A DNA stretch of 64,000 bases from NCBI GenBank assembly GCA_016791105.1, contig JAEUNM010000099.1, positions 36,191 through 100,190 on the forward strand. The letters run 5' to 3'. Source of the DNA: Rhodocyclaceae bacterium. GTDB taxonomy: Bacteria; Pseudomonadota; Gammaproteobacteria; Burkholderiales; Rhodocyclaceae. Below the pieces are notes generated by a model. That model saw nothing but the letters and a program-made list of their open reading frames with translations. It was not told where the DNA came from and made no database searches. The position numbers were made by a program, and so were the translations under genes. Positions 2,796 to 42,113 of the stretch are shown here, piece by piece (position 1 is the stretch's first letter; every line of letters starts with the position of its first letter).

Positions 2796-5630
2796 TCAGA
2801 ACTCTTCCCATTCGTCGTCAGCGCTTGCTGGCGGCATGGCACGGCCGCCGCCAACCGCTACCGCCTTGGCGGGTGGTGCTTTGGGCGGCGCCGCGGCGGC
2901 GGCAGGCAGTTTTTTCACCACCGCCGAGCTCGCCGGCGCGCTGCCGAAACTGCCGTCGAGCTTGAATATGGCGACCGTTTGCGACAGTACGGTGGCCTGT
3001 TCTTCCAGGCTTTCCGCTGCCGCAGCGGCCTGTTCGACCAGCGCGGCGTTTTGCTGCGTCACTTCGTCCATCTGGCCAACCGCCTGCGTCACCTGCTCGA
3101 TGCCGCTCGCCTGCTCGCGTGAAGCGGCAGCGATGTCGGCCACCAGCGAGCCGACCTGGCGTGCGCTGGATACCATTTCGTCCATCGTGCCGCCCGCGGA
3201 CTGCACCAGTTTCGCGCCTTGTTCCACTCGCTCTACCGAATCCGCGATGAGCGTCTTGATTTCTTTCGCCGCCTGCGCGCTGCGCTGAGCAAGGCTGCGA
3301 ACCTCGCTCGCCACCACCGCGAAACCGCGTCCCTGCTCACCGGCGCGTGCCGCTTCCACCGCCGCATTGAGCGCCAGGATGTTGGTCTGGAAGGCAATCG
3401 AGTCGATCACGCCGATAATGTCGGCAATTTTTCGGCTGGATTCCTGTATCGAGCCCATGGTGCCGACGACTTGTTTGACCATGTCGCCGCCGCGCGTCGC
3501 CACGCTATTGCTGCTTTGTGCAAGCTCATTGGCAGAGCGCGCGTTCTCGGCGTTCTGCCGCACCGTCGCGTTGAGTTCTTCCATCGAACTGGCGGTTTCC
3601 TGCAGGCTGGATGCCTGTTCTTCCGTGCGCGCCGACAAATCGGTATTGCCGGCAGCGATTTCCTTGGCCGCGGTATTGATGGCTTCGGTGGATTCCTTGA
3701 TGCGCCCGACCACTTCGCGCAGGCGCTCGACGGTGGTGTTGGCGTCGCTCTTCAACTGGCCGAAGGTACCCGCATAGTCGGCTTCGATTTTTTCCGACAG
3801 CACGCCGCGCGCAATGGCGTTCAGTACGCGCCCCACATCCTGCAGCCCTTTCGACACCAGGTCGACCAGGCTGTTGATGCCTTCCGCCTGCGTGCGCATG
3901 AAGCCCTGCTTGTTCGCAAGTTCCAGACGGCGGGTGAAATCGCCCTGCACCGCGGCGCCCATCAGGCCCGACAATTCGTTTTCGATCGCAATTTCGGCGG
4001 TGCGGTCCAGCCACTCGACAACCGTACCGACACGCCGGCCGACATCGTCCACCACCGGCACCACGATCAGGCGGAAAGTATTGGGACCGACCTTGATTTC
4101 CGTCCGGTAAGGCGCTTTAAGACCCGCGATCAACGAACGCTGGTGCGCCGGATTTTTGTGGAACTGGTCGATGTTGGCACCGATGAGCTTATCCACCGAG
4201 AAGGTCGGAAGCACCTGCTTGAGCGCCGCTTCCTTGACAGAGAGCATTTCGACCAGCGATTCGTTGGTGTAGATGATGTTGCAGTCGGCGTCGGCCAGCA
4301 TCACGTTGGTCGAGCATTTGTCCAGGCCAGCCTTGACGCGGATGGCTTCTTCGGCGATGCGGCGCGACTCGGCAACGTCATAACCGACCTTGGTCTGCAT
4401 GGAGCGCGCGGCGTCGAGAATGGCCGCCAGCTCATCGCGGGCATAGTCGGTCAGGTTCTTGTCCATGCGCCCTTCGGCGATGGCATTGATGAAGTCCGAG
4501 CCTAGCCGTATCGGTTGCATCAGCCGGCGCACGATGTACACGGACAACAGCACCAGCATGAGCGCGCCTGCACCCAATACCGCCAGGGCGGAGCCGGATA
4601 GTCGCGCCTGCCGCGTCAGGGCGTCATTGCTGGCAATGCCGGCCTGTTTGAGCTTGAGATCGACAATGTCGCTCAGCTTGCCCGTAAGCGGGTCTATCGC
4701 GGGGTACATGTCTTTCGCGGCATACTCGCGCAGGCCGTCGCGATCGTGCGCCTCGAGCAGTTTGCGCATCTGCGCGACCGACGCATTGGCTGCCTGCATC
4801 AAATGCTGCGCTTCGTCGGCGACCTTGCGCTCCTCACCCTGCGGATCGCCGGCAATGTATTCGGCCCATTTGCTTGCGGTCGTTTTCTGCGCGCTTTCGA
4901 CATTGGCGATGGCGGCATCGAAACCAAGGGCGCCGTCGCGGGTTTTGTGCGCCGTATCGACGATGTTCACTGCATACATGTCGGAAACGACTTTCAGGCG
5001 TTCGAGCGGTGTTACCCCCTTCTGCGCCAGCGCCGCAACCTCGCTGGCGGCTTCGCTCATGCCGTATTGCCCTATGCCGGCCACCACGCCGGCCACGACG
5101 CCCAGAACGCCCAGCATGGCATACAACTGCCCGCGCAAGGTGTTCAGGCGCAGCATGCGCACGAGCTGGCCGGCACCGGCCTTGACCACTTTGCCGTCGC
5201 GGATTTCAAGGCCTTTCGCCTTGCCGTCGCGAAACAGGGCATAGGCGGCGTCAGCCGCCGCGACGGCGTCGCGCGCCGGGCGCGTACGTACCGACATGTA
5301 GCCGATGATGCGGCCGCCTTCGCGTATGGGTGCGGCATTGGCCACCACCCAATAATGGTCGCCGTTCTTGCAGCGGTTCTTTACCAGGCCGGTCCAGGGA
5401 CGGCCTTCCTTGAGCGAATTCCACAGATCCTCGAATGCTTCCTTGGGCATGTCGGGGTGGCGCACGATGTTGTGCGAAGTCCCGATCAGTTCCTTTTCGG
5501 TAAAACCGCTAATTTCGATGAAATCGCGATTGATGTAGGTTATTACGCCCTTCAGATCGGTTTTCGACACGATCGTCATACCGTCGCGCATCTCGACTTC
5601 GCGTTGTGTCACCGGCATGTTGAGTTTCAT
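2796..5630 (-). CDS. Methyl-accepting chemotaxis protein, PAS-TM-periplasmic-TM-HAMP-PAS-MA architecture, 944 aa
   Basis: N-terminal PAS ([32 protein letters not shown]...WTGLVKNR). Two hydrophobic segments. Highly conserved MCP hairpin tip ([40 protein letters not shown]). C-terminus is ...DDEWEEF. Confidence 0.95.
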
Positions 5631-5991
5631 CTATATACCCTTCGCAGTGAGGTTCTTTGCGTATTACGGCACGCGGCGGCGCGGCTGAAGGGGCGCGCGC
5701 ATGCCTTTCGGTTGGGCCGGACAGGCCTGCAACAGGCGGGGAAAAGTTTGTCCCATTGTGCTTACGCGTTGGGCACAGGTAACTGCGAGCGCGCAGCGCG
5801 CGCGCCGTCGGCCGCGCCCAGATGGGACCGCTGCCGGTCGGCAGGCCGGCCTAAGCAAGCGCGGGCGTGAGGCCGTGCCTCCGCCGCGCCAGGGTGGTGA
5901 CACCACATCAGGACCGAGCATGCAGGCAAACTTCATGTGCGGGCCCCGCACGGCTCATATTGCCGCGCGGGTTCGGCAAAACTGGCGGGCC

Positions 5992-6501
5992 TTAGTGTAC
6001 CGGCGCGTCCACCAGCGCCATGTCCGGCGAAAGCATCAGTTTTTCTATATCCACCACGATGAGCATGCGTTCGTCCAGCGTGCCCAGACCGACGATGTAG
6101 CGCGTATCGACCTGCGCGGCAAAATCCGGCGCCGGACGTACCTGCGAGGACGCCAGGGCGATCACGTCGGACACGCTATCGACCACCACCCCCACCACGC
6201 GCTTGCCCACATTCAGAATGATGGTGACGGTGAATGGCGTATATTCCACGCGCCCGACGCGGAACTTGATGCGCAGGTCCACCACCGGCACGATGATGCC
6301 GCGCAGGTTTATCACCCCCTTGATGAACTCGGGAGCATTGGCGATGGTCGTCACGGCGTCATAGCCGCGGATTTCCTGCACCTTCAGAATATCTATCGCA
6401 TATTCTTCGGCACCCAGGCGGAAGGTCAGGTATTCCTGGGCGTAGCCGCTGTCTTCGGGGCTTTCGCTGCGTGCGGCTTGAACTTCGAGAGCATGCTGCA
6501 T
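5992..6501 (-). CDS. cheW: Chemotaxis coupling protein CheW
   Basis: ORF 5992..6714. CheW fold motifs ([25 protein letters not shown]...[14 protein letters not shown]). ATG at 6501 is preceded by an AAGGAGAAA ribosome-binding site. The upstream ORF extension is Arg/Ala-rich noise. Confidence 0.93.
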
Positions 6502-12613: not shown

Positions 12614-12760
12614 GGCAAGCGAATCCCTCTGCGGCGCCTGCGGGCGGCGCAAGCTGCCCAGTGCGGAGCAAACGCATGCCGGCGCGGCCGCTGCCGGAGC
12701 GCGGCTGCTGTGCGGGCGCCGCCCACACTCATCGAGGTGCGTTAATCGTTGTGGCGGCAC

Positions 12761-12790
12761 AAAAAAAAAAGCCACTGCATAGGCAGTGGC
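12761..12790 (-). terminator. Rho-independent terminator downstream of flhC
   Basis: Minus strand reads GCCACTGC-CTAT-GCAGTGGC followed by T10. Located about 75 nt after the flhC stop. Confidence 0.85.
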
Positions 12791-12864
12791 TAAACTCACC
12801 TTGCTTTGCGCAAGGCGGGGGTCATCGTCGTCGTGGCCGGCCGCGGGCGGCCTGCCACGTGCAT

Positions 12865-32525: not shown

Positions 32526-33791
32526 TCAAACCCCGACGACCGGGATGGTCGATGCGTCCTGGGCGCAGGCCAGGTAGGCTTCCATGACGCGCAGCGGATC
32601 TTTCAACAGTTTGTCCTTCCAGGGACCCAAATGCGTACGCGTCTGGATCATCCCGCGCAAAACGCCGACGTGATTGGTGAGGCCTATGCTGGTGGCCCCG
32701 ATCAGCACGTCGCCGCGAAACTGCAAACTCAAATAGCGCCCGGCCGCGTCATCCACCATTTCAACGGATTGGCCGTCTTCCGCGCCCCACCATTGGCCAA
32801 ACGAAGAAGAAATCATCCCCATTGCGTCGAGCACGTTGAGCGCCAGCGTGCCCTGGCTGGTGGCATGGCCGCCCGCCATATTTGCCGCCGCCACGCGCGC
32901 CTGATCGGCGGCATTGGGCTGAATCGCATTGACGAGCCGCTCGCCGGTCGAAAAATCGATGGCTTCGGCGACGTCGCCGGCCGCATAAACCCCGGGCACG
33001 TTGGTCGCGCAACATTCATCCACATACACGCCGCGGCCCAATTCTATGCCGCTGCCGGCCAGAAACGCCACATTCGGCTTGACGCCGGCCGCCGCGATGA
33101 TGAGGTCGCAGATAATTTCCTGCCCACCCGCAAGGCGCGCCACCAGTGCGCCGCCGGCCTCGCGTATCGATTCGACACGCGCATCGGTGTGCACCTCGAC
33201 GCCTTTTTTCTCCACCCAGCGGCGGATCATGTTGCCCGCCACCTGCGTCATCATGCGCGGCACCATGCGGTCGCCCATTTCGACGATGGTGAGCTTCACC
33301 TTGCGCCGCGTGAGCGCCTCCATGATGATGCAGCCGATAAATCCTGCACCAATTTGCAGAACCCGCGCGCCGGGCTTGGCGCGTTCGGCGATGTGGCGCG
33401 CGTCTTCCAGCGTCCAGCAACTATGCACGCCGGGCAGATCGACGCCGGGAACCGGCAGCCGCACCGGCACCGAACCGGTTGCGATCAGGAGCTTGTCGTA
33501 AGCCAGCGTTTGCCCGTCATCCAGAGTGACCTGCTTCGCCGCCGTATCGACCGCGCTGGCCTGGCCGCGCACTTCGCGTATACCCAGACTTGCAAAATGA
33601 TCGGGCGATTTGCGCAGATAGGTTCCACGCTCGTCGATGTTGCCGACCAGAAGGTAGGGAATGGCCATGCGCGAATACGACGGTTCCGGCTCATTGCCCA
33701 GCATCGTGATGTCGTCCTGCGGGCGCAATTTGCGCAGGGCTTCGGCCGCCACAACGCCGGCCGGACCATTGCCCAGTATGAGGTGTTTCAT
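32526..33791 (-). CDS. aorC: FAD/NAD(P)-dependent pyridine nucleotide-disulfide oxidoreductase (AOR electron-transfer subunit, AorC-like)
   Basis: Two Rossmann motifs (ILGNGPAGVVAAE and VLQIGAGFIGCIIMEA). 421 aa. Between aorB and the MoaD-like gene. Confidence 0.85.
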   Translation of the reverse strand: MKHLILGNGPAGVVAAEALRKLRPQDDITMLGNEPEPSYSRMAIPYLLVGNIDERGTYLRKSPDHFASLGIREVRGQASAVDTAAKQVTLDDGQTLAYDKLLIATGSVPVRLPVPGVDLPGVHSCWTLEDARHIAERAKPGARVLQIGAGFIGCIIMEALTRRKVKLTIVEMGDRMVPRMMTQVAGNMIRRWVEKKGVEVHTDARVESIREAGGALVARLAGGQEIICDLIIAAAGVKPNVAFLAGSGIELGRGVYVDECCATNVPGVYAAGDVAEAIDFSTGERLVNAIQPNAADQARVAAANMAGGHATSQGTLALNVLDAMGMISSSFGQWWGAEDGQSVEMVDDAAGRYLSLQFRGDVLIGATSIGLTNHVGVLRGMIQTRTHLGPWKDKLLKDPLRVMEAYLACAQDASTIPVVGV

Positions 33792-33910
33792 GATCGCCTC
33801 GGAAAAGTCATCAGCTACACAAGAAACGGGGGCACGAACAGCATCCGTGCCCCCTTTTCCCGGCCGCCGCCTGCCGGCTCACACCCGCAGGCCGCACGAC
33901 CGCTACGCCC

Positions 33911-35758
33911 TCAAAGCCCCAGACGCGTAAGCGTTTCCGGCGTCGGACGTCCTTCCGTATCCCAGCCGCGCAGCTCGTAATATTCGGGTAGCATTTTGTC
34001 CAGCCCGCTCACGAGCCCCTTGGCCGGGCCGACCTTGGCCGGCTCGGTCAGCAAGCGCGGCGGCAAGGTGTCGTCCTTGGCCGTAAAGCCGGCGGCGTTG
34101 TTGAACTGGCGCTCCAGATTCCAGATGCGCTCGCCCATTTCGTTGAGCTTTTCGAGCGACCAGTCGCCCTCGCAAGCAGCCTGGACCTGCGGCTGCACGT
34201 CTGCCACGCCCCAGGCGAAGGAAGTGAACACACACAGGCCGGACGAATCGAATACCGCGGTGGCATCCTGGAATGCCTTCACGAGCGCCGGCTTGCCGTC
34301 GGTGGTGAGCGGATCGGTCTTGACGGGAATGCCCAGCACTTCCGACGCCACCGTGTAGGAGCGCAGGTGGCAGGCACCGCGGTTGGAGGTTGCATAGGTA
34401 AGCCCCATGCCCTGTATGCCGCGCGAATCGTAAGCCGGGAATTCCTGCCCCTTCACCGTCATGGACAGTTCGGGATGGCCGTATTTCGCACACATGCGCG
34501 CCGAGCCCATGCCGATGTCTTTGCCGAAACCCTCCCCGCGCGCGGTCATTTCGGTGAGCAGCGCAAGCGCTTTGGCCGAGCCGAAGGGCGCTTCAATGCC
34601 AAGTTGCTCTTTCGTCAGCACCCCCATTTCGTACAGTTCCATGACCGCACCGATGGTTGCGCCAAATGAAATCGGATCCATGCCGTCTTCATTGCAGAGC
34701 AAGTTCGCGTACTGCAAGGCTTCCAGATCGTCCACGCCATTCGCGCTGCCGAGCGCCCAGGCCGCCTCGTATTCCAGCCCACCCGACGCGCCCCAGTATT
34801 TCGGGCTATTGACCACAGAGAAGTGGTTCTGATCAATCTTGGAAATACGTCCGCAGGCGATGGTGCAACCAAAACAGGCCTGGTTGTTTACCAACTGCGC
34901 CTTGCCATCGGTCGGGCGCTTCTCGCGCATGGCCTCGGCGGAAATTTTGCGCGCCCCTTCGAACTGCACATCGCGGTGGTTGCGCGTGGGCATGGCGCCG
35001 ATTTCGTTGATCACGTTCATGAGCACCTGCGTACCGTAGGTCGGCAGGCCGGCGCCCGTGACGGCATTTTCCTTGAGAATTTTTTTCTTCTCGAAGGTCA
35101 CTTTCATGAATTCCTTGGGATTGGCGATATTGCCAACGCCCTTGGTGCCGCGTACCGCAATCGCCTTGAGGTTCTTGGACCCCATCACCGCGCCCACGCC
35201 GGAGCGGCCGGCGGCACGATGCAGGTCATTCACGATGCAGGCATAGAGCACGCCGTTTTCGCCGGCACGGCCGATCGAGGACACGCGCACCAGCGGATCC
35301 TGGTGCTGCTTCTTGACGGTTTCTTCGGTTTCCCAAACGGTCTTGCCCCACAGGTGCGAGGCGTCGCGCAGTTCCACCTTGTCGTCTTCGATCCAGAGAT
35401 ACACCGGCCGCGGTGACTTGCCTTCCAGAATGATCATGTCCCAACCGGCCATTTTCAGCTCGGCGCCAAAATACCCGCCCGAATTGGAACAGGCGATGGC
35501 GCCGGTGAGCGGCCCTTTGGTCACCACGGAATAGCGCCCGCCGGTCGACGCCATGGTTCCGGTGAGCGGCCCGGTGGTAAAAATGAGCTTGTTGTCGGGC
35601 GACAGTGGATCGACTTTTGGATCCACCTCACTGACGAAATATTTGGTGGCCAGACCACGCTGGCCGAGGTACTGCTGCGCCCACTCCATATTGAGCGGTT
35701 CGACCGCGACCGAACCGGACGTAAGATTGATGCGCAGGAATTTACGCGTCCATGCCAT
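33911..35758 (-). CDS. aorB: Tungsten-type aldehyde:ferredoxin oxidoreductase catalytic subunit
   Basis: AOR-family N-terminus (WTRKFLRINLTSGSVAVEPL...YLGQRGLATKY) and a 4Fe-4S ligand cluster CFGCTIAC. ATG at 35758. Confidence 0.92.
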   Translation of the reverse strand: MAWTRKFLRINLTSGSVAVEPLNMEWAQQYLGQRGLATKYFVSEVDPKVDPLSPDNKLIFTTGPLTGTMASTGGRYSVVTKGPLTGAIACSNSGGYFGAELKMAGWDMIILEGKSPRPVYLWIEDDKVELRDASHLWGKTVWETEETVKKQHQDPLVRVSSIGRAGENGVLYACIVNDLHRAAGRSGVGAVMGSKNLKAIAVRGTKGVGNIANPKEFMKVTFEKKKILKENAVTGAGLPTYGTQVLMNVINEIGAMPTRNHRDVQFEGARKISAEAMREKRPTDGKAQLVNNQACFGCTIACGRISKIDQNHFSVVNSPKYWGASGGLEYEAAWALGSANGVDDLEALQYANLLCNEDGMDPISFGATIGAVMELYEMGVLTKEQLGIEAPFGSAKALALLTEMTARGEGFGKDIGMGSARMCAKYGHPELSMTVKGQEFPAYDSRGIQGMGLTYATSNRGACHLRSYTVASEVLGIPVKTDPLTTDGKPALVKAFQDATAVFDSSGLCVFTSFAWGVADVQPQVQAACEGDWSLEKLNEMGERIWNLERQFNNAAGFTAKDDTLPPRLLTEPAKVGPAKGLVSGLDKMLPEYYELRGWDTEGRPTPETLTRLGL

Positions 35759-35775
35759 GAGTGTGTCCTCCGTGC

Positions 35776-36246
35776 TCAGGCCGCAGCCGTGTCGGTTTTT
35801 TCGGCCCACTGGCGCATGCGGTCCAAGCCGGTCCAGTTGGCGTCTATGAAGGTGATTGCACCGGTCGGGCAAGCTTCAGCACAGGCAGGCTCTCCGAAAC
35901 AGAGGTCGCATTTCTGTACCTTGCCGATATCCGCCACATAATTGATGGTGCCGAACGGACAGGCGACAGTGCACACCTTGCAGCCGACACAAACGTCCTC
36001 CAACACCACCTTGGCGCCGGTGTTCTTGTCCAGCTTGATCGCCTCGACCGGGCAGGCGTGCATGCACCAGGCTTCGTCACACTGCGTGCAGGTATAGGGA
36101 ACCTTGCGCCCGGTATGGTGGAATTCGAAAACCTTGATGCGCGACTTCGAATTATTGAACACGCCGTAATTTTCGAACGAGCACGCCATTTCGCACTGCA
36201 GGCAATGCGTGCACTTGTTCGGATCGATGTGCAGCGATTTTTGCAT
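35776..36246 (-). CDS. aorA: Poly-ferredoxin-like subunit with four 4Fe-4S motifs (AorA-like)
   Basis: Four Cys clusters (CTHCLQCEMAC, CTQCDEAWCMHACP, CVGCKVCTVACP, CDLCFGEPACAEACP). Confidence 0.88.
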   Translation of the reverse strand: MQKSLHIDPNKCTHCLQCEMACSFENYGVFNNSKSRIKVFEFHHTGRKVPYTCTQCDEAWCMHACPVEAIKLDKNTGAKVVLEDVCVGCKVCTVACPFGTINYVADIGKVQKCDLCFGEPACAEACPTGAITFIDANWTGLDRMRQWAEKTDTAAA

Positions 36247-36317
36247 CGTCCTCTCTCCTTTTGTTCGTGAAAGTTCAGGCCTGGTTCAAGCTTGCCAAGC
36301 CCGGTAGATCAATAGGT

Positions 36318-36333
36318 AGCAAATCCCACGCCA
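36318..36333 (-). promoter_or_regulatory. Candidate sigma-54 promoter of the aor operon
   Basis: Minus strand reads TGGCGTGGGATTTGCT, with GG-N10-GC spacing and a TTGC -12 element. About 70 nt upstream of the aorA ATG. Confidence 0.6.
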
Positions 36334-36571
36334 CCTGCCGAACCGCTTGTCTTTGCAAATATGCAGCCCAAATCTGTTAGAAAATGGGACACCTGTTGCA
36401 CAATTTGCCGTACCACATCCCCAATGAATTCTAGCGAACCGCGGCGTTAGCGGCAGCACGGCGGGAAAAAGTTTACCGGCACGCGAGATCAAACCCGTTG
36501 CGCTTGTCCGGCCGCTGCCCGAAATCGCCCAGCGCGCCCTCCCCGCCGCAGACGCGCAACGCAAAACCGGC

Positions 36572-37396
36572 TCAGAGCGGCTTCAGCCTGCGCACGCCGT
36601 GTCGCGCGAACACTTCGTCCAGTCTGCCTTCCTTGTCGAGTTCGTTCATGGCTTCCTGGACTCGCCGCGCCAGCGCCTCGTTGCCGGCTTTGGCCGCAAT
36701 GCCCAGCACCCAACCGGCCGGCGGCAGGGCCGGCAGCGGCGGTATCAGGCGGTCAAAACCGCGTGTGCCCTGCATCATTGCCTCGACCTGACTGTTCAAA
36801 GCCAGCACGGCGCTGATACGGTCCTCCTTGAGTTCCCGGAATGCCTCGCCGATATTGTGGAAATGGCGCACGTTGCGCGCCAGTTTGCCGCCCTCGAAGC
36901 CAAGCAGCGCAATCGACCCGATGGAGGCATCTTCGACGCCTATCGTGGCATGTTCGAACACGCTCATGGTTTCCACCTTGGGCAGTTTTTCGCGGCTATG
37001 TACGAGCATCATCTGCTCGCGATAATAGGGCGCAAAAATGAGCACCTTGTCGTTGCGGTCCATGAAGTGCCTATCCACCGGCACATGCATCATGATGTCG
37101 GCGGGTCCGTAACCGAGGTAGTGCCCCTTCCACACCATGTTGCGCAGATCGTCCTCCATTTTTTCGTCGGCATCGAAAGGCAGCAAGGCGAGCCGCAAGC
37201 CCAGGCGCTCTGCGATCAGGCGCGCGATGTCGACATCTATGCCCTTGCCGTCGTCGTTGAATGGCGCAAATTCCTTATACACGGCGACACTGAGCGTGCC
37301 CGGCGCGCGTAATTGATCCAGGCCGGAATCCGCCCACGCCGGTAAGCCGAACGCAGCAAGCCACAACAGGGTCAGAAATTTCAGAACCGATTTCAA
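36572..37396 (-). CDS. Periplasmic substrate-binding protein of the quinoprotein-dehydrogenase-associated type
   Basis: Family-3 binding-protein fold downstream of the cytochrome c550-like gene. Start taken at the TTG at 37396, preceded by AGGAGA, which gives the signal peptide MKSVLKFLTLLWLAAFGLPAWA. Confidence 0.75.
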   Translation of the reverse strand: MKSVLKFLTLLWLAAFGLPAWADSGLDQLRAPGTLSVAVYKEFAPFNDDGKGIDVDIARLIAERLGLRLALLPFDADEKMEDDLRNMVWKGHYLGYGPADIMMHVPVDRHFMDRNDKVLIFAPYYREQMMLVHSREKLPKVETMSVFEHATIGVEDASIGSIALLGFEGGKLARNVRHFHNIGEAFRELKEDRISAVLALNSQVEAMMQGTRGFDRLIPPLPALPPAGWVLGIAAKAGNEALARRVQEAMNELDKEGRLDEVFARHGVRRLKPL

Positions 37397-37431
37397 AAGC
37401 TGTCTCCTGGTATTTTTGTCTGCACAAAATG

Positions 37432-37455
37432 CCAGCGGGGCCGCAGCCCCGCTGG
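37432..37455 (-). other. Intercistronic perfect 10-bp GC hairpin between the cytochrome c and binding-protein genes
   Basis: CCAGCGGGGC-cgca-GCCCCGCTGG. On the minus strand it is followed by CATTTTGTG. Possible attenuator or mRNA stabiliser. Confidence 0.5.
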
Positions 37456-37480
37456 CAATGGCACGCCGCAACGGCAAATC

Positions 37481-37909
37481 CTACTGCAGGCTGCTGCGCC
37501 GGCTTTCCAGGTAGGATTTGATGGCCCAGATGGCTTCCTGGTTCAAAACCCCTTCGAAGGGCGGCATGTAGGTCACGCCATTACGAATTTTCCCCCGCCG
37601 CACACTGTCACGAAAATACACATCCGTGTCCGGATCCAGATCGAGTTTGCGCAAATCTGGAGCAATTCCGCCACTGACCGCTTCCAGGCCGTGACAACGC
37701 GCGCAGTTCTGATTGAATGCCGACGACCCGATCTGGATCGCTTTCTTGTTGTCCCGATACGGGTTCACACCCAGCCAGTCCGCGCCGAGCTGTTTCAGTT
37801 CATGCGTATCGACGACCTGCGGTGTCACGTCGCCATGCGCGTGCGCGACCGTTGCAATACCCATTGCCGCGACCACACCAATTAGTTTTCCGATGGCTGC
37901 AACCTTCAT
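37481..37909 (-). CDS. Monoheme cytochrome c550-like (PedF/ExaB-type)
   Basis: Signal peptide, single heme site CARCHG. Size and sequence resemble the electron acceptors of PQQ alcohol dehydrogenases. Confidence 0.85.
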   Translation of the reverse strand: MKVAAIGKLIGVVAAMGIATVAHAHGDVTPQVVDTHELKQLGADWLGVNPYRDNKKAIQIGSSAFNQNCARCHGLEAVSGGIAPDLRKLDLDPDTDVYFRDSVRRGKIRNGVTYMPPFEGVLNQEAIWAIKSYLESRRSSLQ

Positions 37910-37953
37910 GTTTTGACTCCTCCAGAGGTAAAAAAATCAGGACAGGCTGCTTA

Positions 37954-37969
37954 CGCAAATCCCGTGCCC
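37954..37969 (-). promoter_or_regulatory. Candidate sigma-54 promoter of the cytochrome c550 / binding-protein operon
   Basis: Minus strand reads GGGCACGGGATTTGCG, matching 14 of 16 positions of TGGCACGNNNNTTGCW with correct GG-N10-GC spacing. About 45 nt upstream of the ATG. Confidence 0.7.
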
Positions 37970-38168
37970 GGTCGCCCTCCATCGCGCCGGCCAGCTGCGC
38001 GATCGCCGTGATTAAACCGGGTCAAATGCGGCCGTGATCAGACGCTTTGGGCCGGATTGACTTTCCGCAAAATTTCGGGAATTCGGCCATACTCCGTCTT
38101 GCCACGCTGGCCAGAACAGGCGCCGCTCGGCGCCCGCGTAATATGCACCGCATTGGCAGTTCCCGCAG

Positions 38169-38203
38169 AAAAAAAAAGCGGCTGACACCGGGGTGCCAGC
38201 CGC
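38169..38203 (-). terminator. Strong rho-independent terminator with no obvious upstream gene
   Basis: Minus strand reads GCGGCTGGCACC-CC-GGTGTCAGCCGC followed by T9. Confidence 0.8.
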
Positions 38204-38555
38204 AAGCAAAACACGAGGAGAAACACTAAGGGGGAAACACAAAATCGGCCTGCCCAGCCCCACCCCAAGCTGGACAAGCCCGCCGGAGCAAGAATCAACC
38301 GATCAGGCCAAATTCCCCGGTCAAATCGACTAAACTCCAAACATCTGCTGCGCCACATTGCAACATTCGGCTATCTGTTAAGCAGCAAGCCGGCTGCAAA
38401 TCGCCGCTGAGCACCGCATGCCGGCACACTTTGCAGCGCGTGCGCGGCACAGCGCCAAGCCAATTCAATCCACTGTGGCGCTTTGGCGTGGAACACGCCG
38501 GTACAAGCAGATTTGACAGTTAGGTAGCCTCTGTCGCCGCGTTCGGAACTATCCA

Positions 38556-38571
38556 GGCAAGCCGCGTACCA
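38556..38571 (-). promoter_or_regulatory. Candidate third sigma-54 promoter, driving a unit with no ORF
   Basis: Minus strand reads CTGGTACGCGGCTTGCC (TGGTAC-N5-TTGC, GG-N10-GC). Points toward the terminator at 38169..38203. Confidence 0.5.
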
Positions 38572-38753
38572 GCCTGAAAAACCGCTCAAAACGGCACGCC
38601 CGAAGCCCGTTTCAGCCTCGGCTGCGGCAAATTGCCACACTTCTTGGCAACACTTGCCACAACCTGTAGCACATGCTACGGTTGCCCGGCTCACGAGAAG
38701 GGCGGGCATGCACTGCACCGTCACCATGGGTGCTCACTCTGGAGGAAAAGTCG

Positions 38754-40808
38754 ATGAGCCCGCGGATTCCGCAAATCAATCAGGCACAGCACGCCCATAC
38801 TGCGGTCCGCTCGGATGGCACGATTCCTGCAGGAAGCCTCGACGCCATGATCGAGAACTCCTGGAAACGTTGCCAAGCTTTGGGCTTGACCGAAGACTGC
38901 CGGCCCGGCTTCGACCCCCTGCCGCGCAGCCGCATGCAGGACGCGATAGAGGCCAACCATGCGCTGATCGCTCATGCGCGGCCGGTCATGGAAACCCTGT
39001 ACAGCCAGATCGTCGACACCCAGAGCATGCTGGTACTTACCGATGCAAATGGGCTCATCCTGCATTCCCTCGGCGACGACGACTTCCTGCAACGGGCCGA
39101 CAAGGTTGCGCTCAAGCCGGGCGTCGTGTGGACCGAAGAGGCGATGGGTACCAACGCCATCGGTACCGCCATCGCAGAAGATTCGCCGGCCCTGGTGCAC
39201 GGGCCGGAACACTATCTTGCAGTCAATCAGTTTCTGACCTGCTCGGCCATCCCGATTACCGATCCGCACGGCAAACTCGCCGGGGTGCTAGACCTGTCCG
39301 GCGACTGGCGCGGCTACCACCGCCACACCATGGCGCTGGTACGCATGTCCGGCCTGCTGATCGAAAACCACATGTTCGGCAGCGCATTTGCCAACGCCGC
39401 CGTACTGACGTTCCACAGTTGCCCTGAATTCATCGGCACGCTGTGCGAGGGCATGATCGCTTTCCGGCCCGATGGCACGGTGTTGTCCGCCAACAAGAGC
39501 GGTCTGTTTCAGCTTGGGCTGGGCCTCAACGGTTTGCGCAGCCATACCTTTTTTTCGCTGTTCTCACAGCCTGTCAGTACGGTATTCGACCACGTGCGCT
39601 GCCGCGGCAGCGACTTGATGCAATTGACCTTGCCGACCGGCATCAAGGTTTATGCCCGCGCGCGCATTGCCGCAAGCAGCACCGGCAGCCCCGCGCACCT
39701 CATCGTGCCGGGGCAGGAATTGCAGCGCAGCGCCGGTTTTGCCGGGCCGTCCGTCGCGGCACGCCCCGCTCCCGCACCCACGGCGACGCCCGGTGCAAAC
39801 GGCACCTCGCATGGCAAGTGCGGCTCGCTCGACGCGCTCAAAACCGGCGACCCGCAAATCGACGCCGCCCTGCACAAGGTACACAAGGTGCTGGGGCGTG
39901 ACATATCGGTACTTGTCCAGGGCGAAACCGGCACCGGCAAAGAACTTGTCGCGCGTGCGATCCACCATGATTCGCCGCGCCGCAACGGGCCTTTCGTGGC
40001 CGTCAATTGCGCGTCGATCCCGGAAACCCTCATCGAATCGGAACTGTTCGGTTACGAGGAAGGGGCATTCACGGGGGCACGCCGCAAGGGCTCGGTGGGC
40101 AAAATCATGCTGGCCAACAGCGGCACGCTGTTTCTGGACGAAATTGGCGACATGCCGCTCAATCTGCAGGCACGTCTGTTGCGCGTGCTACAGGAGCGCG
40201 TGGTGACGCCCCTGGGCAGTTCGAAAACTTTCCCGGTCGATGTCGCCATCATTTGCGCCACGCACCGGCGGCTCAAGGATTTGATCGCGCGCGGCCTGTT
40301 TCGCGAGGATTTGTACTACCGCTTGAACGGACTATCCATCACGCTTCCGCCACTGCGCATGCGGCAGGACTTGCATGCCGTCGTGCAACGCATTTTGCGC
40401 GACGAACTCAAGGTGGGCGATGAACTGGACGTGTCGCAGGAAGTGCTGCGGTTGTTTTGCCAACACCCCTGGCCGGGCAATATGCGGCAACTTGTCAACG
40501 TGCTGCGCACCGCCGTCGTGATGGCGGATGGCGAAGCCGAAATTTGTCGCGAGCACCTGCCCGACGACTTTCTCGAAGACATGGAAGCGCCTGGCACTGC
40601 GGTCCCTGTCGCAGCAGTAGCCATTACGCCGCCGCCAACGGCCGGCGTAGTCCCGCTGCAAGACGGCAAGCTCGAAGACATCGAACTGAACGCCATTCAG
40701 TCCATGCTGGATCAGACCGGCGGCAACGTGTCGGCGACCGCCCGCCGCCTCGGCATCAGCCGCAACACGATTTACCGCAAATTGCGCCAACTGAGCGGCG
40801 GCGCCTGA
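38754..40808 (+). CDS. Sigma-54-dependent transcriptional activator, AcoR-like (sensory N-domain, AAA+, Fis-type HTH)
   Basis: Walker A GETGTGKE, sigma-54 contact loop EEGAFTGA, C-terminal HTH ([18 protein letters not shown]). AcoR-type N-terminus ([13 protein letters not shown]). ATG at 38754 follows GGAGGA. Confidence 0.92.
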
Positions 40809-40840: not shown

Positions 40841-41764
40841 TCAGCGATCAAACAATTCCTGCTCCGCTTCACGCCAGCGCTTCTGCACATTGAGGCCGTG
40901 CTCGGGAAGGTATTCAGCCCAGTCGCGATAGTCGGGGAAAGCCAGACGTTGCGGCGCGCTGGCGGCATCATTGCCGGTCTGGACGTCAGCGCCCACCGAG
41001 CGCTCCAATTGTTCGAAATAACCCCGTATGGCGGCGATCAAGCCGGCATCGCCGGCTGGGCCGTGCCCGGGTAGCACGTGCGCCGGTGCGAGATCGGCAA
41101 GTTCGGCGAGGACGGCGGCCCAATCCGCAAGTTGGGCATCGCGCATTTGCGGAATTTGCCGGTTATTGACCAGTCCGCCGGCAAGCAGAACCCCTCGCGC
41201 CGCATCGTACAGGGCGATATTGCCGGGCAAATGTCCGCCTTCGAAGCGCAGCACGGTCAGTGTCACGCCCGCCAATTCAACCGTCGCGCGTGCCGACTGG
41301 ATAGTCTGGCGCGGCAGCACGATGCGCGTGCCGCGAATTTCGTCCTCGCCTATGGCAGCACGCAAATTGCGCCGGCAGCGCGGGCAATAGCGGCGCATGC
41401 GCGCCGCCGTGATGTCGGAGGCGAAAAAAACCACGCCCGGCTTCACGAACACCGATGCGGCGAGCACATTTTCCGGATGCGCGTGGGTCGCGACCACTGC
41501 CACGACCGGTCGCCCGATCTGCGCCCGGATCAACTGCCGAACACGCAGCCCATCCTTGTAAGTGGGACCAGGATCAACCATGACCAGGCCCTGCGCCCCC
41601 TCCAGGACCACGCTATTGGCCACGCGACCACAGTTGCCGCGCGCCGGTGCCTCCTGCGCCCCAGGTACCAGCCATACGCCCGGCACGATCGCCTGTAGCG
41701 ACAGGGGAGGACAGGCAAAGGCGGACGCACCCAGGGCAATCAACCCAAGCACAGCCGCACGCAT
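40841..41764 (-). CDS. Periplasmic metallo-beta-lactamase-fold hydrolase (quinoprotein relay system-like)
   Basis: Signal peptide (MRAAVLGLIALGASAFA) and MBL motif region (VVATHAHPEN). Start at 41764. This family is typically encoded in PQQ-ADH clusters. Confidence 0.75.
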   Translation of the reverse strand: MRAAVLGLIALGASAFACPPLSLQAIVPGVWLVPGAQEAPARGNCGRVANSVVLEGAQGLVMVDPGPTYKDGLRVRQLIRAQIGRPVVAVVATHAHPENVLAASVFVKPGVVFFASDITAARMRRYCPRCRRNLRAAIGEDEIRGTRIVLPRQTIQSARATVELAGVTLTVLRFEGGHLPGNIALYDAARGVLLAGGLVNNRQIPQMRDAQLADWAAVLAELADLAPAHVLPGHGPAGDAGLIAAIRGYFEQLERSVGADVQTGNDAASAPQRLAFPDYRDWAEYLPEHGLNVQKRWREAEQELFDR

Positions 41765-42113
41765 CAAGCACGCCGCCGAACCGAAACGGCTCCGAGCGCC
41801 AACTTCGGCACGCCCGCTCAATTCACATGCCCCCGCTCAATGCTCGCCGCAATTGCCGGCACAGCGCGTATGGACGCCATCACCGGGCCACACTCGCACG
41901 GCATGGCGGAAACGATAGTCGCGAACCAGGGCATACCGCGGCGCGATCCGAATAAAAGCCTGGCGCCACCAGCCGTGGCAATTTGCAATACCGGGCAGTC
42001 CGCAGCCCGCCCCGTCCAGTACAATCCCGGGTTGAAGGCGAGCATGCAAACAAACTGAAAATCGCCAGCCGCGCCCTGCTTTGCGATTCGATTTCGATAG
42101 TTGTGCCTCCCAC

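Follow-up and report, generated by a model that had tools for sequence, protein, structure and literature searches.

A candidate sigma-54-dependent regulatory RNA gene beside its presumed activator gene in the pedF/aldehyde oxidoreductase region of a Rhodocyclaceae bacterium

To our knowledge, sigma-54-dependent small regulatory RNAs (sRNAs) are few, namely Qrr, GlmY, CrcZ/Y, NrsZ and Pxr, and each of them showed post-transcriptional shaping of the output of an enhancer-binding activator. CrcZ and CrcY of Pseudomonas (~400 nt, CbrB/sigma-54) and GlmY (GlrR/sigma-54) are encoded beside the gene of their enhancer-binding activator, and qrr1 adjoins the divergently transcribed luxO. CrcZ and CrcY titrate Hfq/Crc by A-rich CA motifs, and GlmY mimics GlmZ for RapZ. 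The alphaproteobacterial CCUCCUCCC-motif sRNA families carry a CU-rich anti-Shine-Dalgarno motif in hairpin loops, often in several copies, and are not sigma-54 dependent. In Vibrio quorum sensing, the Hfq-type Qrr sRNAs are transcribed from a sigma-54 promoter with an enhancer-binding protein and exert negative feedback on their own activator (PMC2632942; PMC11407668); phosphorylated LuxO (LuxO-P) and sigma-54 activate these RNAs, which pair over the luxO ribosome-binding site (PMC2632942). The present analysis concerns a 64,000-nt stretch of contig JAEUNM010000099.1 from a Rhodocyclaceae bacterium (hereafter the window), in which a gene-free gap of 844 bp separates the ATG of the cytochrome c-550 gene pedF (37909) from that of a divergent sigma-54 activator gene (38754). 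A preliminary description had put this gap between the cytochrome c550 operon and the activator gene at ~840 bp, and had proposed that it holds an activator-dependent sRNA or a micropeptide. The comparative evidence presented below supports the sRNA half of that proposal as a candidate but not the micropeptide half, for which no conserved open reading frame (ORF) was found.

The interval probably represents a stand-alone gene for an activator-dependent non-coding regulatory RNA of the pedF/aldehyde-oxidoreductase regulon, a reading to which we assign a probability of roughly 0.55. On the minus strand, the gap contains, in order, two palindromes, a promoter motif (P1), ~340 nt without a credible gene, a terminator, a ~200-nt spacer and a second promoter motif (P2). 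Counterparts were compared among four lineages, represented by the window and the loci L110/L109, L083 and L084, and the features are as follows.

38659-38645: enhancer-like palindrome 1 (upstream activating sequence, UAS), TGGCAA-GTG-TTGCCA, ~105 bp upstream of the predicted start
38637-38625: enhancer-like (UAS) palindrome 2, TGGCAA-T-TTGCCG, ~85 bp upstream of the predicted start
38571-38557, minus strand: sigma-54-type promoter P1, TGGTACGCGGCTTGC = TGGTAC-GCGGC-TTGC, with -24 GG and -12 GC
38169..38545, minus strand: predicted primary transcript of ~377 nt, its start placed by rule 12 nt downstream of the -12 GC
38292..38545, minus strand: variable 5'/middle part, with 22-39% identity and large indels in every pairwise comparison
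38169..38291, minus strand: conserved 3' domain of about 110-120 nt, the presumed functional core of the RNA
38247..38280, minus strand: hairpin 1, GGCUUGUCCAGCUU-GGGGUG-GGGCUGGGCAGGCC, with an equivalent hairpin in all four lineages
38266-38258, minus strand: invariant GGGGUGGGG (DNA GGGGTGGGG) in the loop and 3' arm of hairpin 1, from alignments A1, A2 and A3
38225-38215, minus strand: invariant 11-mer UGUUUCUCCUC (DNA TGTTTCTCCTC), the candidate seed, CU-rich, anti-Shine-Dalgarno-like and predicted to be single-stranded
38203-38178 (stem-loop) and 38177-38169 (T9), minus strand: intrinsic terminator, GCGGCTGGCACC-CC-GGTGTCAGCCGC plus U9, with 11 pairs
37969-37955, minus strand: second sigma-54-like promoter P2, GGGCACGGGATTTGC, 46 nt before the pedF ATG

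Relatives were obtained by retrieving closer activators from a large protein collection and fetching their contigs, with L-numbers denoting loci. The activator gene and pedF are separated by a long gap (808-980 bp) in four lineages. Besides the window, these are L110/L109 (from a Rhodocyclaceae metagenome-assembled genome, with activator and PedF 87% and 88% identical to those of the window), L083 (identical to L082) and L084 (L111 denotes this contig too, and L112 a nearly identical one from a different sample). In a neighbour-joining tree of the activators, the four carriers formed one clade composed of two deep pairs, with 68-70% identity between the pairs. The palindromes, P1 and the terminator were kept in the same order and orientation in all four lineages, and the equivalent predicted transcripts measured 498 nt in L110, 338 nt in L083 and 377 nt in L084. 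The first 250-390 nt of these transcripts were effectively unalignable, and the spacer between the terminator and P2 showed 21-42% identity. The palindrome block was 75% identical between the window and L110 and 91% identical between L083 and L084, with flanking spacers at 25-45%, and the 3' domain retained 74-77% identity within the close pairs and 54-56% between the deep lineages. The 9-nt and 11-nt blocks were invariant across lineages with activators of 68-70% identity. Although neutral intergenic DNA of the four carriers no longer aligns, they retain the -24/-12 bases, the terminator stem and the U-tract. Such an island pattern is what purifying selection on a promoter and a 3'-located functional RNA element would leave. 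Of the ~375-nt unit previously outlined, the conserved part is the last ~110 nt, and the first ~250 nt are unconserved.

Six other lineages with the same activator-pedF arrangement (L085; L087/L088; Aromatoleum bremense L113; L114-L116; L117; L118/L119) had a short gap of 227-366 bp and no trace of the unit. Similar palindromes were present in these relatives, followed by a single sigma-54 promoter reading into pedF; the terminator and the G-run/CU-run domain are missing, and the gap is too short for the RNA. Conservation in relatives that share the flanking genes had been suggested earlier as a check on the unit, and its outcome was divided: the promoter and the 3' domain were kept in four lineages, and the unit was absent from six.

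The promoter had previously been described as a sigma-54-type motif with GG-N10-GC spacing and a TTGC -12 element. All of this holds (the minus strand across P1 reads cTGGTACGCGGCTTGCc), but its coordinates were one base off, since the 17-mer really occupies 38572-38556. The pattern TGGTA[C/T]-N5-[C/T]TTGC was present in all four lineages, where the counterparts of P1 are TGGTACGCAGTTTGC (L110), TGGTATGAGCCTTGC (L083) and TGGTACGGCGCTTGC (L084); P1 was 90% identical between the window and L110, the -24/-12 bases were invariant in all four, and the 5-nt spacer varied. It lies ~85-105 bp downstream of the two palindromes and beside the sigma-54 activator gene. The product of this divergent gene is a 684-aa AcoR/MimR-type activator with MimR_N/GAF sensing domains and is intact, with Sigma54_activat, GAF, HTH_8, the Walker A motif GETGTGKE and GAFTGA. 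The palindromes are its presumed binding sites. The locus thus combines -24/-12 elements at the expected spacing, upstream enhancer-like sites and an adjacent GAFTGA activator that would bind them.

At the other end of the unit, the terminator reported at 38169-38203 was confirmed as an 11-bp GC-rich hairpin followed by T9; 8 of the 11 pairs are G-C and the loop has 4 nt, which gives the GC-rich stem-loop and immediate U-tract of an intrinsic terminator. The stem was 100% paired in all four lineages, which retained U-tracts of 7-9. One compensatory change affects its basal pair, which L110 has as A-U and the other three lineages as G-C; at two more pairs the lineages vary between G-C and G-U. 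A generic terminator scan was not enriched (5 found versus 2.0 ± 1.4 expected). No minus-strand gene lies upstream of the terminator, which can therefore only stop a transcript begun inside the gap.

Between the variable part and the terminator, hairpin 1 had predicted free energies of -26.3, -29.6, -13.8 and -19.5 kcal/mol in the four lineages. Its stem sequences differ between them, with 5 of 12 pairs changed on both sides, and the L083/L084 hairpin is one register off; in every case the hairpin displays the G-run in its loop and 3' arm. RNAalifold favoured an alternative pairing of the invariant G-run with the downstream CCACCCC. In the window and L110, neither the minimum-free-energy (MFE) fold nor the centroid fold paired the 11-mer UGUUUCUCCUC. 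A role of hairpin 1 as a second terminator was rejected because GAUUUUGUGU follows it in the window only and is not conserved. The folding z-scores of the 5'/middle part were -5.6 in the window and -2.4, -1.1 and -1.5 in the three relatives; a conserved structure in this part was rejected because of this inconsistency between lineages. A hairpin, an unpaired seed, a terminator and a U-tail constitute the usual layout of Hfq-type base-pairing sRNAs. The unit has this layout: it is non-coding, is bounded by a predicted promoter and terminator of its own, ends in a 3' hairpin with a U-tail, and carries a conserved seed candidate that is unpaired in the window and L110 folds.

These conserved blocks might instead have no function at the RNA level. 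The unit would then be a by-product of an insertion or promoter duplication, and the blocks would be DNA-level sites, i.e., protein-binding sites or an insulating terminator shielding pedF from enhancer-driven transcription. Conservation of the invariant blocks as sequence, not as structure alone, is consistent with this explanation, as is the occurrence of the unit in a single clade, with no example found elsewhere; compared with the short-gap relatives, the unit resembles an insertion. In addition, a second GG-N10-GC/TTGC motif before hairpin 1 in L083 and L084 suggests promoter-like debris. However, P1, the G-run, the CU-run, the stem and the U-tract were kept in order and spacing while the neutral parts diverged beyond alignment, and the compensatory change in the terminator and the re-paired stems of hairpin 1 point to constraints on an RNA. 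A pure insulator would also need no invariant unpaired 11-mer. We consider this explanation quite improbable.

The second promoter bears on another alternative, in which the unit is a cis-acting leader or attenuator. P1 would then be the promoter of the pedF-aor operon, and the 3' domain and terminator would control read-through via a protein, a ligand or an alternative fold. The unit is co-oriented with pedF and ends 260 nt upstream of it, P1 occupies the ancestral position of the pedF promoter relative to the enhancer (compare the single promoter in the six short-gap lineages), and no convincing second enhancer was found near P2. A switch is hinted at by the two possible partners of the invariant G-run, one within hairpin 1 and the other the downstream CCACCCC. 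Against a leader, a P2-type promoter lies 46-76 nt before pedF in all four carriers. It is strong in the window, in L110 (95% identical) and in L083 (CGGCACGAGTGTTGC), and weaker in L084, where only AGGTATAGGGTTTGC could be read from the alignment. The location of P2 between the terminator and pedF argues that the candidate RNA is a separate transcription unit. Moreover, every lineage has a strong terminator with a completely paired stem, inspection of the alignments by eye revealed no conserved sequence competing for the 5' arm of this stem, and the 190-290 nt between the terminator and pedF are unconserved. Rfam contained no matching riboswitch or leader family, including Moco/Tuco (molybdenum/tungsten cofactor), at E up to 10. 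Taken together, these observations make a leader unlikely.

The remaining alternative is a small-protein gene, with a micropeptide encoded by a 23-codon ORF or another short ORF. The preliminary description had listed two weak ORFs, both of which exist.

38366-38295, minus strand: 23-codon ATG ORF, judged not to be a gene, with no Shine-Dalgarno sequence
38038-38358: 106-aa ORF running through the terminator, with no Pfam match

A further ORF of 57 aa starts from TTG. The presence of ORFs of 23 codons, 57 aa and 106 aa favours a coding function, but no ORF of the interval had a conserved counterpart in L110, L083 or L084. Peptide similarity between lineages was confined to the nucleotide-conserved 3' domain, where two forward frames and one reverse frame showed it simultaneously, and 1-nt indels occurred inside this domain. 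The 23-codon ORF lies in the unalignable part. A PqqA-like peptide, which would be expected to carry an E-X3-Y motif, was rejected for this ORF because it lacks the motif and is not conserved. A small-protein gene is thus highly improbable.

Known RNA families did not account for the interval. The covariance-model comparison proposed earlier was run with Rfam 15 at E up to 10 on window positions 37000-40000 and returned no relevant family, including Qrr; the sole match in the interval was a 23-nt SAM_alpha fragment scoring 15.4 bits against a gathering score of 36. There was no cis-regulatory match, and, with P2 intervening before pedF and no conserved competitor of the terminator visible by eye, the features of a riboswitch or attenuation leader were not found. 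L110, L083 and L084 had no Rfam matches at E up to 1, and ARAGORN detected no tRNA or tmRNA. The 3' domain was found by nhmmer and by a covariance model built for it (R1) in the four lineages only, at 97-137 bits. When R1 was applied to 67 loci and the window, good scores were again obtained for the four known lineages only, and the weak matches were ordinary terminators (e.g., window 12750-12824) and one uncertain match in Methyloversatilis. A query of a genome collection with the activator protein yielded 80 loci, the best 55% identical, in which nhmmer and blastn revealed no intergenic similarity. A metagenome scan for TGGGGTGGGG-N20-50-TGTTTCTCCTC gave 20 matches, all without the terminator and genomic context and judged to be chance. 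A plasmid collection contained no match to the unit, which is single-copy in the window. With no Rfam match and no homologue outside the four uncultured lineages, the candidate RNA would constitute a new family.

The uncertain match lies at 6062-6147 (minus strand) of L007, a Methyloversatilis sp. locus, and scored 19.9 bits (rough E 0.006). This match occupies the very end of the ~260-nt 3' untranslated region (UTR) of a pyrroloquinoline quinone (PQQ) alcohol dehydrogenase gene convergent with the activator gene; its sequence is GGGGTGGTG...TGTTCTCTTC...terminator. Either a distant relative or simply a terminator may be present here.

Under the favoured reading of a stand-alone RNA gene, the activator would bind the palindromes at 38659-38625 and, with its effector present, open P1 (38571-38557). 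Transcription from near 38545 to the intrinsic terminator (38203-38169) would yield a primary RNA of ~375 nt. Its working part would be the 3' ~110 nt, comprising hairpin 1 with the G-run, the unpaired UGUUUCUCCUC and the terminator hairpin with its U-tail; this domain may be freed from the variable 5' part by processing, or the 5' part may serve as a spacer. The CU-rich stretch would pair with ribosome-binding sites of the GGAGGAG type and block their translation. The candidate seed UGUUUCUCCUC is the complement of GAGGAGAAACA, an extended Shine-Dalgarno sequence; nothing else in the window closely matches GAGGAGAAACA. Among local candidates, the best target would be the translation start region of the activator itself, resulting in negative feedback similar to that of LuxO and Qrr. 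The start regions of the activator genes compare as follows.

L110 activator start region, GAGGAGAAAC: 10/10 match to the seed, -15.4 kcal/mol
L083 activator start region, GAGGAGAAGC: 10 matches including one G-U, -16.8 kcal/mol
L084 activator start region, GAGGAGAAGG: 9 matches, -13.0 kcal/mol
Window activator start region, GGAGGAAAAG: poor match, -8.9 kcal/mol

In L110, L083 and L084, the activator site was the best target among the neighbouring genes, the others ranging from -1 to -11.4 kcal/mol. Among the short-gap relatives, L085 and L087 have activator start regions of the GGAGAC type with lower scores against the L083 seed, and the Aromatoleum locus L113 (GGAGGAGGAGAC) reached -12.6 kcal/mol. 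A window-wide target scan by duplex energy gave no clear outlier at gene starts, and the best start-site match, at ORF 47670, relies on bases that are not conserved in L083/L084. Negative feedback of the RNA on the activator is therefore an attractive but weakly supported possibility.

Several observations weigh against a stand-alone regulatory RNA acting in this way. The P1 motif on its own is within chance expectation, as the exact pattern TGGYAC-N5-TTGC had one match in 64 kb versus 0.39 expected and at least one match in 35 of 100 shuffles; the P1/terminator pair exceeds chance because of its position and conservation, not because of the motif alone. About two-thirds of the predicted transcript is unconserved, which is unusual for an sRNA and would be explained solely by the assumed processing or spacer role. 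In favour of an RNA, the named structure had 84.5% of cells paired versus 32-50% in slid controls, with six pairs changed on both sides, but it was derived from the window's own fold, so this structure test serves as support only. Likewise, the covariation score of 0.389 (shuffled mean 0.219; reached in 0 of 500 shuffles) comes from four sequences that are effectively two deep branches of two members each, and such statistics are weak. The MFE folds of L083 and L084 can hide UGUUUCUCCUC in a weak local CUCCUCAGGAG hairpin, although it was unpaired in the centroid folds. The target prediction is also weak because any CU-rich stretch matches strong Shine-Dalgarno sequences, and in the window the activator site did not outscore pedF, aorA or an unrelated ORF. 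Finally, all four carriers are uncultured metagenome assemblies.

The genes around the gap were annotated as listed below, together with a third promoter motif.

37481-37909, minus strand: pedF, cytochrome c-550 (TIGR04494, 207 bits versus a cut-off of 122)
36572-37477, minus strand: PedG-like solute-binding protein (SBP), 3' of pedF
36333-36319, minus strand: third sigma-54-like motif, TGGCGTGGGATTTGC, before aorA
32526-36246, minus strand: aldehyde ferredoxin oxidoreductase (AOR) cluster of three genes (Fe-S subunit, AOR, flavin adenine dinucleotide (FAD) subunit), after the SBP gene
40841-41821: metallohydrolase ('quinoprotein relay system')

The cluster holds accessory genes of PQQ alcohol dehydrogenases, namely those for PedF, the PedG-like binding protein and the 'quinoprotein relay system' metallohydrolase. 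By contrast, tblastn detected no PQQ dehydrogenase gene anywhere in the 64 kb, and pedF and the SBP gene instead precede the tungsten-type aldehyde ferredoxin oxidoreductase operon. Descent of the variable part from a PQQ alcohol dehydrogenase gene by decay into a pseudogene was rejected, as tblastn gave no match in the interval or elsewhere in the window. In some relatives, an ORF of 316-319 aa without a Pfam match lies 3' of the binding-protein gene (L109 2437-3387; L087 3242-4201). In L109 it is located between the binding-protein gene and aorA, where the window has a 325-bp non-coding gap (36247-36571). A perfect palindrome, GGCGCC-GAGC-GGCGCC, occurs at 38114-38133 in the spacer between the terminator and P2 of the window and was not kept in the relatives.

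The claim that two more sigma-54 promoters lie nearby was borne out by same-strand sigma-54-like motifs before pedF and before aorA. A sigma-54-type promoter was kept 68-86 nt before aorA in all four RNA-bearing lineages (TGGCGTGGGATTTGC, TGGCGTGGGAATTGC, TGGCGCACCGATTGC and TGGCGTGCCGCTTGC), the regions in the relatives being L109 3388-3572, L083 3490-3825 and L084 1972-2195. The window (36395-36440) and L109 share a block ~75 nt upstream of the aorA promoter. Within it is CGGCAAATTG, complementary to the half-site CAATTTGCCG of the second palindrome beside P1, so that one activator may act on both P1 and the aor promoter. A direct similarity of 26 nt (77%) was also observed between the start of the aorA 5' UTR (36287-36312) and the 5' flank and arm of hairpin 1 (38266-38291). 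Both segments are able to form a GGCUUG...CAGGCC stem, and the similarity may be chance or the trace of a promoter/5' UTR duplication.

The additional GG-N10-GC/TTGC motif lies ~12-20 nt before hairpin 1 in L083 (AGGCCCGGAACTTGCA; 5193-6000, minus strand, position 424) and L084 (AGGCGCGATTCTTGCG; 3584-4475, minus strand, position 461), corresponding approximately to window 38303-38288. In these two lineages it could drive a short RNA form of ~100 nt. An internal sigma-54 promoter before hairpin 1, giving a ~100-nt sRNA, was rejected as a general feature because the window has GG-N9-GC and L110 lacks TTGC.

By analogy with described systems, the candidate would belong to a kind already known, a sigma-54-dependent regulatory RNA encoded beside its enhancer-binding activator. 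What would be somewhat unusual here is the 3'-only conservation of a long predicted transcript and the apparent capture of an enhancer and promoter by an inserted RNA-terminator module. In its fullest form, which we regard as doubtful, the proposal is a Qrr-like circuit outside quorum sensing: a catabolic, effector-sensing sigma-54 activator would drive an sRNA whose 3' domain represses translation of the activator and perhaps of pedF/aor genes. A recent insertion would have captured the ancestral pedF enhancer and promoter, so that pedF came to depend on a second promoter ~600 bp away from that enhancer. If true, this scenario would provide a datable example of sRNA birth by promoter capture. 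More generally, a dedicated sRNA would add a post-transcriptional layer to alcohol/aldehyde oxidation in Rhodocyclaceae, which has so far been described transcriptionally only, and the contrast between four lineages with the unit and six without it, all sharing the flanking genes, offers a clean natural experiment on sRNA birth beside an existing enhancer. The practical value is limited by the uncultured state of the carriers and the rarity of the family in the searched collections.

Compared with the known systems, the candidate resembles CrcZ in its length and its setting in catabolic regulation, whereas no repeated motif such as those of CrcZ/CrcY was seen; it differs from CrcZ/CrcY and GlmY in its single CU-rich stretch beside the terminator and the lack of an Rfam match. 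It shares with the CCUCCUCCC-motif families an unpaired C/U-rich stretch complementary to ribosome-binding sites of the GGAGG type as a likely seed, but here one linear copy lies between the hairpin and the terminator, again without an Rfam match. The pedF promoter of the short-gap relatives has the same divergent activator, pedF and similar palindromes, but reads straight into pedF. The Qrr sRNAs have no sequence or Rfam similarity to the candidate and are ~100 nt long, whereas the primary RNA predicted here is 338-498 nt with the conserved part at its 3' end. The activator is of the GAF/MimR_N effector-sensing type, whereas LuxO is a phosphorylated response regulator; the setting is alcohol/aldehyde oxidation, not quorum sensing, and the predicted feedback pairing is strong in only three of the four lineages. 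Nevertheless, the divergent arrangement of the two neighbours is that of the Qrr/LuxO system, and the likeness would extend to a sigma-54 promoter driven by the activator, a terminator hairpin with a U-tail and, as predicted here, pairing over ribosome-binding sites.

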